Below are positions 8,228 through 15,016 of a stretch of DNA of 15,475 nt, in pieces (the first letter of the stretch is position 1; each line of letters starts with the position of its first letter). This DNA is from a virus (Duplodnaviria; Heunggongvirae; Uroviricota; Caudoviricetes), in IMG/VR virus record IMGVR_UViG_2558860274_000003; one strand, 5' to 3'. Below the pieces are notes generated by a model. That model saw only the letters and a program-made list of their open reading frames with translations. It did not search any database and had not been told where the DNA came from. The position numbers and the translations under genes were made by a program.

Positions 8228-8443
8228 TTAAGCGGCTTTGTGTTCCGGCGGGAACACGTCATCAAGACTGACTTTTGCGCCTAACTTGTTTAGGCATGCA
8301 ACAAGAGCACGGCATGTTTTAAGGTCTGGGAAGCGACGACCAGATTCCCAATGTCCGATAGCTCCCTGTGTGCATCCAACTGCCTTAGCAAGTGTTGTTT
8401 GAGAGATATTCAGTGACTCTCGATATTTTCGTAGGTTGCTCAT
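8228..8443 (-). CDS. cro: Cro-type repressor (71 aa, HTH_XRE)
   Basis: Start at the internal ATG (plus 8441-8443) preceded by GGAGGG; the longer ORF would overlap OR and cI. MSNLRKYRESLNISQTTLAKAVGCTQGAIGHWESGRRFP... is a classic Cro/C1-type HTH. It is divergent from cI across a 114-bp operator region. Confidence 0.8.
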   Translation of the reverse strand: MSNLRKYRESLNISQTTLAKAVGCTQGAIGHWESGRRFPDLKTCRALVACLNKLGAKVSLDDVFPPEHKAA

Positions 8444-8557
8444 ATGCCCTCCATAGTAAACACGAATAAAATACAATATGTACTTTAAGAATACAAGTAA
8501 AAATACACATTGTGCATGGATGATTCCAGTACAAAGCGTAATAATAAGGACATGAAA
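8444..8557. promoter_or_regulatory. OR-like divergent promoter/operator region (PR for cro, PRM for cI)
   Basis: 114-bp AT-rich interval between the divergent cro and cI starts. It contains short dyads (TACAATATGTA 8472-8482, CACATTGTG 8506-8514) and three ATACA(A/C) repeats (8471, 8491, 8503). A PR candidate on the minus strand is TTGTAT-17 bp-TATTTT (8496 to 8468). Confidence 0.55.
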
Positions 8558-9211
8558 ATGAAATGGTATGAACTGGCTAGATCCAGAATGAAAGAGCTCG
8601 GCATAACTCAAGAGAAGTTAGCCGAAGAGCTAGGTATGACGCAGGGTGGGATTGGACACTGGTTGCGCGGATCTCGTCATCCATCTCTTAGTGATATTGG
8701 TGTGGTGTTTAAATACCTTGGTATTGATAACATATCATTCAACCACGACGGGACATTTTCACCTGTTGGCGAATACTCATCGGCCCCAGTTAAAAAACAA
8801 TATGAGTACCCTGTTTTTTCTCATGTTCAGGCTGGGATGTTCTCTCCAGAACTCAGAACCTTTACCAAAGGCGATGCGGAGAGATTGGTAAGCACAACCA
8901 AAAAAGCCAGTGACTCTGCATTCTGGCTTGAGGTTGAAGGTAACTCAATGACCGCACCAACAGGTTCCAAACCCAGCTTTCCTGACGGGATGTTAATTCT
9001 GGTTGACCCTGAGCAAGCTGTTGAGCCCGGCGATTTCTGCATAGCCAGACTTGGTGGTGATGAATTTACCTTCAAGAAACTGATCAGGGATAGCGGTCAG
9101 GTGTTTCTACAGCCACTAAACCCACAATACCCAATGATCCCATGCAATGAGAGTTGTTCCGTTGTGGGGAAAGTTATCGCCAGCCAATGGCCTGAAGAGA
9201 CGTTTGGGTGA
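8558..9211 (+). CDS. cI: CI-type prophage repressor (217 aa): novel N-terminal HTH fused to a lambda-CI-type C-terminal S24 autocleavage/dimerisation domain
   Basis: The C-terminal about 130 aa ([26 protein letters not shown]...[22 protein letters not shown]) match lambda CI essentially residue for residue as I recall it, including the Ala-Gly cleavage site and Ser/Lys dyad region. The N-terminal HTH ([30 protein letters not shown]) is different. Start chosen at ATG 8558, 7 nt after AAGGA; ATG 8552 is an alternative. Confidence 0.88.
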
Positions 9212-9250
9212 TGAAACCACTTTTATCTACAATTTACAGGGCGGTAAACA

Positions 9251-9808
9251 TTGGCAAAAATAGATGATTATCAGCCAAGCCAAGTAGAAGTTGATAAAGT
9301 ACTTTATTGTAAAAAAATAGTTAACTTTTCTGGCGTTAAATGGAAACAGAAACCAAGTCGCTCTGATATGTGGCTACAAGCTCATATCATCCCCTTGGAT
9401 GAGGATTGTATACCTATACAAGGGCTAAAGTTTGAACTGAAATGGAAACCAGATCAGGATTCAGAACCTGATGACCCGATTTCTTACCCTAAAATAAATA
9501 TTATTGCTTTCTATCATAACAAGAGGGTTTTCGCGGTAGATACCTATCACTTTGACAAACACACGAATAGTTACAAGGTCGATCATCCGAAGTACCAAGA
9601 TATCATTTACGGTGCTCACTACCATGTATACTATGAAGAAGCTGGATACTATAGTGATAGAATAGCGTTTCCAATCGAAGATGACATAAACCCAGATGAC
9701 CTGGTAGGGTATTGGAATTACTTCTGTAAACATCTGAACATAACTTACTCTGGGAGAATACCTTTACCGCTTGAAGATGAGTCGGGGCAAATGGGGTTTG
9801 GAATATGA
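9251..9808 (+). CDS. Hypothetical protein A (185 aa), acidic, Tyr/His-rich, no recognisable family; first gene of the cI-linked cassette
   Basis: ORF starting 39 nt after the cI stop on the same strand. The only in-frame start near the 5' end is TTG 9251 with a weak upstream AGGG; the next ATG is codon 40 (9368). No hydrophobic segments. Contains a HYHVYYEE motif. The stop overlaps the start of gene B (ATGA at 9805-9808). Confidence 0.55.
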   Translation: MAKIDDYQPSQVEVDKVLYCKKIVNFSGVKWKQKPSRSDMWLQAHIIPLDEDCIPIQGLKFELKWKPDQDSEPDDPISYPKINIIAFYHNKRVFAVDTYHFDKHTNSYKVDHPKYQDIIYGAHYHVYYEEAGYYSDRIAFPIEDDINPDDLVGYWNYFCKHLNITYSGRIPLPLEDESGQMGFGI

Positions 9809-10557
9809 TGTGCTCAACAGTGATCTCACAACTAGGTTTCGAATGCCATCCAATAGGCAAGACCTTGAGAATTATCAGTCCATTCACTTACTGTGATGAT
9901 GGAGAGCATGTCGGTGCCTTTATCCGTGAAGTCAATGGTAGGTATTTAGTTAGTGACAGATGCGATGCCTTAATGAATATGGAGGCAAGAGGGATCTCGC
10001 TTACCAAAAAACGACTTGATGAGATACGACAATTACTGCTTAAAGAAGGCGCAGAACTCAATGCTCGAGGAGAAATCATTGCTTGGGCAACAGAAAAGGA
10101 TGTCGGTGCGATTACATCGAACATAATTAGAGCTGGTATACTCGCATCAACTTTGTCGTTAGACTGGTATCAGCCAGTTCAAGCTGAAAAGTTTGAAAGT
10201 ATGGTTATTGATTATCTATATCACACAGAGCTTAGAGACGCACTTTCTCTTCGTGAAAACGTATATGGCTTGAGTGGACATCAAATTACCGTCCCTGTAA
10301 CAATAAAAACCGACATACCTAAATACGTTTTTACATCAAGCGTGAAACACGGAGGAAGCTGGAATAGTGCTTACTCATTGCTTGGGAAACTAATTGATCT
10401 TAAAGCTTCAAGTGAGGAGTATAACAACAGATTTGTTGTTATAGACAGCGAAGCAATTGGTGATCAAATGCAACAACTCTCCTTACTCTTCCATGAATCA
10501 AGCCAAGTTCTACCATTCTCCAAAAGAGAGACTTGGATTAAGAGACTTGCAGCATAA
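9805..10557 (+). CDS. Hypothetical protein B (250 aa), no recognisable family; second gene of the cI-linked cassette
   Basis: ATG overlaps the stop of gene A (translational coupling). Soluble-looking protein. Immediately followed by a strong intrinsic terminator. Confidence 0.65.
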   Translation: MMCSTVISQLGFECHPIGKTLRIISPFTYCDDGEHVGAFIREVNGRYLVSDRCDALMNMEARGISLTKKRLDEIRQLLLKEGAELNARGEIIAWATEKDVGAITSNIIRAGILASTLSLDWYQPVQAEKFESMVIDYLYHTELRDALSLRENVYGLSGHQITVPVTIKTDIPKYVFTSSVKHGGSWNSAYSLLGKLIDLKASSEEYNNRFVVIDSEAIGDQMQQLSLLFHESSQVLPFSKRETWIKRLAA

Positions 10558-10561
10558 TACA

Positions 10562-13576: not shown

Positions 13577-14466
13577 TGCCACTGCTGGATAAGCTGCGTG
13601 AGCAGTACGGGGTCGGACCGCTATGCAGCGAACTGCATATTGCCCCGTCAAACGTATTACCACTGTCAGCAACAGCGACATCATCCGGATAAACGCAGTG
13701 CCCGTGCGCAGCGCGATTGACTGGCTAGAAGAAAGAGATACTGCGCGTATACGATGGGAATCATCAGGTATACGGTGTGCGTAAAGTCTGGCGTCAGTTG
13801 TTACGGGAAGGAATCAGGGTAGCCAGATGTACAGTGGCGCGCCTCATGGCGGTTATGGGACTTGCCGGTGTTCTCCGGGGTAAAAAGGTCCGTACGACCA
13901 TCAGCCGGAAAACCGTTGCCGCAGGCGACCGCGTAAACCGTCAGTTCGTGGCAGAACGACCTGACCAGCTGTGGGTGGCTGATTTTACTTACGTCAGCAC
14001 ATGGCAGGGCTTCGTCTATGTGGCGTTCATCATTGATGTGTTTGCCGGATACATTGTGGGGTGGCGGGTCTCATCGTCCATGGAGACGACATTCGTGCTG
14101 GATGCACTGGAGCAGGCGTTATGGGCCCGTCGACCGTCCGGCACGGTCCATCACAGTGATAAAGGTTCTCAGTATGTATCGCTGGCCTACACACAGCGGC
14201 TTAAGGAAGCCGGATTACTGGCATCAACAGGAAGTACAGGCGACTCGTATGACAACGCGATGGCGGAGAGCATCAATGGTCTTTACAAAGCGGAGGTAAT
14301 ACACCGTAAGAGCTGGAAAAACCGTGCAGAAGTGGAACTGGCCACACTCACGTGGGTGGACTGGTATAACAATCGACGATTGCTGGAAAGGCTGGGCCAT
14401 ACTCCTCCGGCAGAAGCAGAAAAAGCTTATTATGCTTCCATCGGAAACGATGATCTGGCAGCCTGA
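13573..14466 (+). pseudogene. IS629 OrfB transposase (DDE), N-terminal region disrupted by frameshifts; intact catalytic portion 13777-14466
   Basis: The -1 frame entered at the orfA end ([26 protein letters not shown]...) hits TAA at 13690-13692. The expected continuation (TYYHCQQQRHHPDKRSARAQRD) is in another frame and itself stops at TGA 13725-13727. The long ORF resumes only at GTG 13777. The element is 3 bp longer than the 1310 bp I recall for IS629, consistent with three 1-nt insertions. Confidence 0.7.
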
Positions 14467-14508
14467 GTTCACAGATAAAACACTCTCCAGGAAACCCGGG
14501 GCGGTTCA

Positions 14509-14667
14509 GACTTAAATGCATATGGTGTTGTGTGTGAGTTCGACTGGAATGATGGAAATGGTCAGGAAGGATGGCCTCCAATGGATGGTAGCGAAGGAAT
14601 AAGAATTACCGATATCGATACATCAGGAATATTTGATTCAGATGATATGACTATCAAAGCCGCCTGA
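14509..14667 (+). pseudogene. ea10: ea10, 3' part (codons 72-122) after the IS629 insertion
   Basis: After removing one copy of the GAC duplication the frame continues LNAYGVVCEFDWNDGNGQEGWPPMDGSEGIRITDIDTSGIFDSDDMTIKAA*. This gives 122 aa in total, the length of lambda Ea10, with the same 72-nt gap to cIII as in lambda. Confidence 0.75.
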
Positions 14668-14739
14668 GCGCGGCGTTACCGCATACCAATTAAGCTTCAC
14701 TCGAGGCGTTTTTCGTTATGTATAAATAAGGAGCACACC

Positions 14740-14904
14740 ATGCAATATGCCATTGCAGGGTGGCCTGTTGCTGGCTGCCCTTCCGAATCTTTACTTGAAC
14801 GAATCACCCGTAAATTACGTGACGGATGGAAACGCCTTATCGACATACTTAATCAGCCAGGAGTCCCGAAAAATGGATCAAACACTTATGGCTATCCAGA
14901 CTAA
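14740..14904 (+). CDS. cIII: CIII, FtsH inhibitor that stabilises CII (54 aa)
   Basis: ATG 14740 preceded by TAAGGAG. Translation [54 protein letters not shown] matches lambda CIII. Absent from the supplied track because it is under 60 aa. Confidence 0.88.
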   Translation: MQYAIAGWPVAGCPSESLLERITRKLRDGWKRLIDILNQPGVPKNGSNTYGYPD

Positions 14905-15016
14905 ATTCACTATCGCCACTTTTATTGGCGATGAAAAGATGTTTCGTGAGGCCGTCGACGCTTATAAAAAATGGATATTAATACAGAAACTGAGATCAAG
15001 CAAAAGCATTCACTAA
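14873..15016 (+). CDS. kil: Kil, host-killing FtsZ inhibitor (47 aa)
   Basis: Internal Met of the 89-aa track [50 protein letters not shown] matches lambda Kil. It overlaps the cIII end and the gam start with the same geometry as lambda (46-nt overlap with gam). Confidence 0.82.

Follow-up and report, generated by a model that had tools for sequence, protein, structure and literature searches.

A recently decayed lambda-like prophage at argU of Escherichia albertii KF1 that keeps a seemingly complete switch and kil

Introduction

The kil gene of phage lambda was discovered in a laboratory defective prophage. The strains that defined kil, and those used for recombineering, carry cI857, N+ and kil+ in the order cI, left operator and promoter (OL/PL), nutL, N, ral, ea10, cIII, kil; they have no replication or lysis functions, and derepression leads to filamentation and death (PMC3961180). 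Here we describe the natural equivalent of such a prophage, a lambda-like remnant at the argU site of Escherichia albertii KF1, contained in a 15,475-nt stretch of viral DNA (IMG/VR record IMGVR_UViG_2558860274_000003; "the window" below is this whole stretch). We put the probability at roughly 0.7 that this is a recently decayed prophage with a seemingly complete working switch and kil, whose survival is best explained by its youth. Compared with the laboratory prophage, the N-terminal domain of its CI, its operators, Cro and N have the immunity and nut specificity of phage ev207; two cargo genes, A and B, replace rexAB; cro, usually deleted in laboratory strains, is kept; and an extra moron and an insertion sequence (IS), IS629, lie between N and kil. 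Moreover, its CI is wild type and is hence predicted to respond to SOS, not to temperature as cI857 does.

In kind the locus is ordinary and belongs with e14, Rac and Qin. e14 is likewise defective, has a CI-like, LexA-like repressor (CohE), and encodes YmfM (SfiC), which contributes to SulA-independent SOS filamentation. However, YmfM has no relation to Kil, CohE is only proposed to control ymfM, and e14 keeps its integrase and can excise. Rac also holds toxic genes under a repressor, RacR being essential as the silencer of ydaS/ydaT, an addiction-like logic shown experimentally (PMC5700373, PMC5700377). In contrast to the CI of the remnant, RacR lacks an S24 domain and is not cleaved during SOS; the toxic genes of Rac lie on the cro/cII side, and its KilR is unrelated in sequence to lambda Kil. 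In Qin, the repressor DicA holds down a division-inhibitor operon (DicB/DicF) that is toxic when expressed, but DicB acts through MinC, DicF is a small RNA and there is no SOS-cleavable repressor.

Phage ev207 and the E. coli prophages of APEC O1, S88, IHE3034 and Nissle 1917 share 99-100% nucleotide identity with the remnant from cro to gam, including A-B, N and sieB. These elements are full-length and integrated next to icd, whereas the remnant lies at argU, comprises positions 8003-15180 alone and has in addition the moron, IS629 and a changed OL1 operator. Judged by its sequence, the remnant falls within the lambdoid immunity-region family, and its Kil protein belongs to the lambda Kil family.

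Results

Extent and age of the remnant

The window is a heavily decayed prophage at the argU site, and its positions 2983-15475 are 100% identical to the E. albertii KF1 genome (CP007025.1). The lambdoid immunity and early-left block spans 8003-15180. The first-pass annotation had drawn it at 8228-15016, limits that are widened by homology to ev207 (NC_049949; blastn identities of 99.3% over 8003-12308, 96.0% over 12799-13199 and 98.5% over 14509-15180). The block ends inside a gene on either side, with the left deletion junction at 8003, in codon 28 of cII, and the right one at 15180/15181, 30 codons into GamS:

8003-8086, minus strand: 5′ fragment of cII, 28 codons; ev207 homology starts inside cII
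15091-15180, plus strand: 5′ fragment of gam, 30 codons of GamS; ev207 homology ends inside gam

Two illegitimate deletions, one from cII to upstream of cos and the other from gam to within intD, would account for this structure. O, P, nin, Q, the lysis and head/tail genes, bet, exo, xis and most of int have been deleted. The replication, lysis, structural and excision genes of a functional phage are therefore gone, as had been stated at first reading for replication, lysis and excision and as the homology limits agree; what follows the left junction is cos and a nu1 fragment and then IS elements, and intD is truncated. The cro-to-gam stretch itself is widespread, occurring at ≥80% coverage in 207 complete E. 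coli genomes, including APEC O1, S88, IHE3034 and ATCC 11775. Among the best matches, the majority run without interruption and show 100% identity to ev207.

Neither deletion junction was found in 5,426 complete E. coli genomes, where the whole window also had no full match, and the gam/intD junction was absent from the GTDB species representatives. The 48-residue Gam′-fusion product that crosses the right junction was found in about 20 contigs of the E. albertii lineage, drawn from NCBI assemblies, SRA-derived assemblies and gut metagenomes. The remnant copies in these contigs are 99.9-100% identical to the window, and the host flanks are 99.96-100% identical in five of six contigs compared (99.1% in one metagenome scaffold). 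Three contigs (L013, L017 and L009) extend across both the left junction and position 10789, the changed base of OL1, and match exactly there, while a fourth (L019) covers 10789 without a mismatch. In six contigs (L013-L015, L017, L019, L020) ea10, the gene cut by IS629 in the window, is intact (122 amino acids), and the IS629 site, where covered, is a precise empty site (L013, L017). The prophage therefore decayed first, and IS629, which most copies lack, inserted later in the KF1 sublineage. The contig on the IS side is common to at least 8 further samples.

A near-clonal, shallow lineage and a young remnant best explain these sequence comparisons. As the copies differ by 0-2 changes, a test of purifying selection by dN/dS, the ratio of nonsynonymous to synonymous substitution, is impossible. 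Moreover, recency alone is sufficient reason for the genes to be intact, and their retention needs no selection.

The cI-cro switch

The first-pass annotation had read an intact cI with a LexA-like cleavable domain, and this is borne out by a Peptidase_S24 match and by conservation of the cleavage site and catalytic residues. It had passed over several further retained parts: cro, the right promoter and operator (PR/OR), nutR, a tR1-like terminator and 28 codons of the cII 5′ end. What the remnant keeps therefore seems to be an entire bistable switch, more than a repressor plus PL. Its elements are as follows.

8228-8443, minus strand: cro-like helix-turn-helix repressor, 71 amino acids; Pfam HTH_3, E 4e-12; 100% identical to ev207
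8444-8515: OR region with divergent promoters PR and PRM; putative operator dyads at 8470-8484 and 8502-8516, from a dyad scan and alignment with six relatives
8516-9211, plus strand: cI repressor (helix-turn-helix and S24 autoprotease); Pfam HTH_3 and Peptidase_S24, E 1.3e-28
10730-10744, plus strand: putative OL3, from the dyad scan
10763-10777, plus strand: putative OL2, from the dyad scan
10788-10802, plus strand: putative OL1, from the dyad scan
10776-10804, plus strand: putative PL, with TTGATC at 10776-10781, a 17-nt spacer and TACTAT at 10799-10804, by analogy with PR

The C-terminal protease domain of CI is that of lambda CI save for one residue, a W to L change that ev207 shares, and it keeps the Ala106-Gly107 cleavage site, the nucleophile Ser144 and Lys187/188. 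CI differs from its relatives at residue 3 alone, and amino-acid variation between copies is confined to the first 12 annotated codons. Since an AAGGA-ATG start lies at 8552, just past this variable stretch, the true start of cI may be the ATG at 8552 instead of 8516.

cro diverges from cI across 72 nt, and a run of A in its 5′ leader (8464-8468) varies from 4 to 7 among relatives. In lambda, Cro turns PL down after derepression. The putative operators are 15-nt dyads that follow A(A/G)TACA-N3-TGTAC(T); OL has three of them, and at OR two are clear. PRM, PR, PL and all of these operators are putative assignments, those of PL, PR and the operators being made by position, dyad symmetry, the parallel layout of PR and PL, and conservation.

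From OL/PL to N only two positions differ from six reference prophages, and the OL/PL segment (10730-10804) is invariant in the six relatives except at 10789. There the putative OL1 dyad reads ATTACATATCGTACT in the window and AGTACATATCGTACT in the six relatives, a G to T change; T was found at this position in none of the 311 E. coli genomes carrying the OL/PL 80-mer. An adaptive operator mutation was considered and rejected. The block has 27 differences private to it against six references in 5,376 nt, so that ~0.09 chance hits are expected per 17-nt site, and half-site position 2, the one altered in OL1, also varies among the putative operators. The change is kept as a caveat only.

From PL to kil

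The nut sites and N had been reported as retained, and both sites can be read in the sequence, with N matching N_peptide at 111 bits. Kil, cIII, ral and sieB had been given as genes of the PL operon; all four are present and intact, but sieB lies antisense to PL. It follows that PL cannot transcribe sieB, for which, by analogy with lambda, a promoter of its own seems likely. The IS629 element between PL and kil had been overlooked. The features on this path, with their counterparts on the PR side, are listed below.

8125-8142, minus strand: tR1-like intrinsic terminator between nutR and the cII fragment, from a terminator scan
8172-8217, minus strand: nutR, with boxA CGCUCUUUGUAACAA, spacer hairpin and boxB UCGCUGAAAAGCGA, from sequence and fold
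10851-10895, plus strand: nutL, with boxA GCUCUUUAAACAAC, spacer hairpin and boxB UGGCUGAAAAGCCA, from sequence and fold
10994-11266, plus strand: N antiterminator, 90 amino acids, with arginine-rich motif; Pfam N_peptide
11283-11864, minus strand: sieB, superinfection exclusion; Pfam SieB, phrog_1301
12078-12278, plus strand: ral, 100% identical to lambda Ral; Pfam Ral
12309-12798, plus strand: 490-bp moron after ral, seen as a gap in blastn against ev207
12983-13196, plus strand: 5′ part of ea10 (DUF2528), cut by the IS; phrog_646
13197-14508, plus strand: IS629-like element of the IS3 family, 1312 bp, with inverted ends and a 3-bp target duplication (GAC)
14509-14667, plus strand: 3′ part of ea10, where ev207 homology resumes
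14727-14785, plus strand: cIII mRNA thermoregulator, intact; Rfam Lambda_thermo, 88.5 bits
14740-14904, plus strand: cIII, 100% identical to lambda CIII
14873-15016, plus strand: kil, 47 amino acids; Pfam Lambda_Kil, 70 bits, and alignment

nutL and nutR have a common boxA and an identical boxB loop, GCUGAAAAGC, and their stems differ by compensatory changes. N is identical to that of E. coli 2013C-3342. In E. coli relatives, the DNA corresponding to 10834-11016 is annotated in RefSeq as a 60-residue hypothetical protein (WP_000438342.1); the reading frame overlaps nutL and the ribosome-binding site of N and is probably not a real gene.

The terminator scan placed three strong intrinsic terminators between N and kil, at 12267, 12792 and 12935, and expression of Kil from PL therefore depends on N. 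Two of these are near-duplicates that bracket the moron (12267-12298 and 12792-12819). The open reading frame of the moron (12338-12787) encodes 149 amino acids, belongs to phrog_3054 (no assigned function), has no Pfam match and shows two hydrophobic segments by eye. ev207 lacks the moron, whereas every E. albertii copy of the remnant carries it; a ~500-bp insertion in the cro-gam stretch of E. coli K56-43-un may be the same element.

The IS629-like element lies between ral and cIII-kil, co-oriented with PL, and its ALIL frameshift pseudoknot is intact (120 bits). Its junction with ea10 was absent from the 5,426 complete E. coli genomes. IS3-containing top E. coli matches (HM670 and others) were considered as sharing this insertion and rejected, their copies lying in O and near DUF1382.

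Kil is identical to lambda Kil at 46 of 47 residues and keeps the helix-turn-helix core (residues 4-38) and the RSSK motif. The one change, L38Q, falls at the end of predicted helix 2. An exact match to the Q38 allele was found in 69 E. coli records, the matches listed being annotated kil, and Kil residues 1-36 still block division, about ten-fold less efficiently (PMC11762379). Given both, L38Q is probably tolerated and the Q38 peptide probably active; L38Q as an inactivating change was rejected on the same allele count and on the dispensability of residues 37-47 (PMC11762379).

These features bear on the possibility that the remnant is an inert wreck, in which the switch no longer delivers Kil because IS629 or the terminators block transcription, the OL1 change or Cro has reset regulation, or Q38 is hypomorphic, so that nothing happens on SOS. 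IS629 and three strong terminators do stand between N and kil, the OL1 substitution is specific to the lineage, and L38Q closes helix 2. However, N and nutL are intact, and in lambda neither terminators nor polar IS insertions stop a polymerase modified by N; in 1974, Adhya, Gottesman and de Crombrugghe reportedly found N to relieve the polar effect of IS insertions. IS629 points the same way as PL, as does translation of its reading frames, and there are sister remnants that lack the element. The Q38 allele is also common, and Kil 1-36 retains activity (PMC11762379). Complete loss of function is thus possible but unlikely.

Insertion sequences and addiction

The first-pass annotation had proposed that the toxicity of Kil selects for cI and with it A-B: loss of cI would derepress PL and express kil, cells that lose cI would be counter-selected, and the co-transcribed A-B pair would hitch-hike. 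In its favour, none of the parts that such an addiction needs (cI, OL/PL, nutL, N and kil) is damaged. Kil is lethal when a defective prophage stays derepressed for long (PMC3961180), and a cause of the same kind makes RacR indispensable in Rac (PMC5700373, PMC5700377).

However, the lineage is too shallow to reveal purifying selection, and insertion sequences offer an escape that does not require cI to be kept. Such escape is seen in related E. coli prophages, where the insertions, all upstream of kil, interrupt N (IMT5155 group) or sieB (19AR0253), closely follow N (MS15236) or fall in the sieB-ral gap (2013C-3342); it is also seen in KF1 itself, whose IS629 precedes cIII-kil. A kil::IS2 lysogen likewise appears in the strain table of PMC3961180. 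At least five independent insertions (IS66 twice, IS100, ISEc52 and IS629) were observed between PL and kil in the prophage family, at the following places.

L004, 10283-12678
L005, 5637-7438
L006, 5396-7708
L007, 5845-7014
The window, 13197-14508

No IS insertion was seen in cI-A-B among the loci inspected. The insertions between PL and kil could reflect selection to cut expression of Kil or the PL operon, or simply a tolerant target.

Moreover, the retained Cro would damp PL after loss of cI. In the full-length relatives, loss of cI is lethal through lytic growth anyway, and conservation of cI there therefore says nothing about kil. The number of E. coli genomes with the cI N-terminal domain (776) was compared with that of the OL/PL 80-mer (311) as a test for PL-N without cI, and was rejected as uninformative because the same cI is linked to differing downstream cargo and flanks. 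The arrangement also differs from a toxin-antitoxin pair, in that CI represses transcription and is encoded 5.7 kb upstream of kil, outside its operon. Pfam and PADLOC scans found no domains of toxin-antitoxin families, and the resemblance is functional only. With a shallow lineage, easy escape by IS and a retained Cro all arguing against it, selection for cI and A-B through Kil is improbable. The proposal as a whole thus holds in part: its mechanism, from CI cleavage through PL and N to Kil, is sound as a prediction from sequence, whereas its evolutionary half is unsupported.

Cargo genes and host benefit

The rexAB slot is filled by two genes that overlap by 4 nt.

9251-9808, plus strand: cargo gene A, 185 amino acids, in the rexA position; phrog_2017, weak matches to DUF6978 and PADLOC PDC-M24A
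9805-10557, plus strand: cargo gene B, 250 amino acids, in the rexB position; Pfam DUF1828, PADLOC PDC-M24B, phrog_1960
10561-10590, plus strand: intrinsic terminator closing cI-A-B, with an 8-bp stem, 6 GC pairs and a T run

Owing to the strong terminator after gene B, cI-A-B forms one transcription unit that is separate from PL. PDC-M24 is an unvalidated candidate system of PADLOC, matched full-length by B (E 6e-10) and weakly by A (E 4.8e-4 over 60 residues). About 207 E. coli genomes and the ev207-type phages carry the pair with 99-100% conservation, and we regard A-B as a candidate anti-phage pair.

Retention for the benefit of the host is a further explanation. The remnant would then be a domesticated module, kept for CI immunity against ev207-type phages, for SieB exclusion, for defence by A-B and perhaps as a SulA-independent SOS division checkpoint. 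The PDC-M24 matches and the rexAB position of A-B are in line with this, as is the intact sieB. With the cI N-terminal domain present in 776 E. coli genomes, the immunity type is widespread, and its cognate phages are therefore likely common. That a cryptic prophage can cause filamentation during SOS has a precedent in YmfM/SfiC of e14. However, A-B are without a known phenotype, their PHROGs have no assigned function, and no literature was found that ties DUF1828 to defence. The shallow lineage offers no conservation signal here either.

A protective role for a "phage repressor (pr)" gene of Nissle 1917 has been reported, in that it protects K-12 against lambda and stx phages (PMC5987069). 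The forward primer used there ("pr", Nissle 1917 prophage 3) maps to 8114-8132 on the minus strand, just upstream of cII, where it mismatches only at 8119, a base specific to the remnant; for the reverse primer the window contains no match. The cloned gene is thus probably cII, which is truncated in the remnant, and we rejected that study as proof that CI protects. Immunity, SieB exclusion and the candidate defence pair remain possible benefits, and host benefit explains retention equally as well as addiction does. As the reason for survival, however, domestication is doubtful.

Surroundings of the block

The remainder of the window contains host genes, IS elements and further phage debris.

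1-954: ompT, at the left end of the window
1204-1953, minus strand: appY
Adjoining 3016-3789: tail-fibre-assembly fragment
3016-3789: leucine-rich repeat (LRR) gene, type III effector-like
3714-4987: IS2 element
5054-7387: IS66-family element
7442-7654, minus strand: terminase small-subunit (nu1) fragment
7766-7777, minus strand: perfect lambda cos cohesive end
15181-15475, plus strand: C-terminal fragment of intD (DLP12-type integrase), ~97 residues, from the intD annotation of matching E. coli DNA

In E. coli relatives, the annotation of the LRR protein is that of a type III secretion system protein (effector-like). Since its match to phage families is limited to residues 1-229 and its C-terminal end abuts IS2, the gene is probably truncated. 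argU lies 16 nt past the end of the window, was identified as tRNA-Arg(UCU) in a related contig (L012), and is followed by fimZ, the sfm fimbrial genes and folD.

Past kil and the gam fragment, the direction of PL leads through the intD fragment to argU in antisense and fimZ in sense (15181-15475 of the window and 8401-9358 of L012). A PL transcript antiterminated by N could thereby reach host genes (fimZ) after SOS. PR faces the other way (minus strand, 5054-8003): beyond cro, nutR, the cII fragment, cos and the nu1 fragment lie tnpA-tnpB-tnpC of the IS66-family element in the same orientation, and derepression of PR with N present could raise transcription of this transposase.

Discussion

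Read as a recently decayed prophage with a working switch, the remnant would behave as follows. In the repressed state, CI would be made from PRM together with A-B, bind OR and OL, and silence PR and PL. By analogy with lambda, DNA damage would stimulate self-cleavage of CI through RecA and derepress both promoters; N acting at nutL would carry polymerase past the three terminators and the co-oriented IS629 to cIII and kil, and Kil would block assembly of the FtsZ ring via ZipA, so that cells filament. No phage would be made, there being no replication, lysis or excision, and Cro would then damp PL, again as in lambda. Filamentation by Kil triggered by SOS and without phage is thus a reasonable prediction.

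Several points weigh against this reading. PL and PR fall below the threshold of a generic promoter scan, and putative OL1 carries the lineage-specific G to T. SOS inducibility is predicted from a lambda-like C-terminal domain of CI that has one W to L change. IS629 and the three terminators separate N from kil, and read-through needs N to act as it does in lambda. Lastly, the retained Cro may limit Kil to a short pulse.

A more elaborate version would turn some of these points into adaptations: the remnant would have been tamed to a module that serves the host, in which the OL1 change and IS629 tune Kil to a sub-lethal, reversible pulse that acts as a SulA-independent checkpoint, with CI, SieB and A-B for defence. 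N-modified PL and PR transcripts might in addition couple fimZ (sense), argU (antisense) and the IS66-family transposase genes to SOS. We consider this highly improbable. Taken together, a young remnant remains the preferred reading, and no demonstrated addiction is needed to explain its survival.

The concept is already established in e14, Rac, Qin and laboratory lambda remnants, and the gain here is another example and not a new principle. More useful by-products are the recurrent IS insertions between PL and kil and the uncharacterised two-gene cargo in the rexAB slot. If the prediction is true, DNA damage would make E. albertii KF1 and its close relatives filament by way of the prophage and independently of SulA, and survival under quinolones and similar stresses could be affected. 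The locus would then also offer a natural setting in which to study how cryptic prophages shed or tame their toxic early genes.

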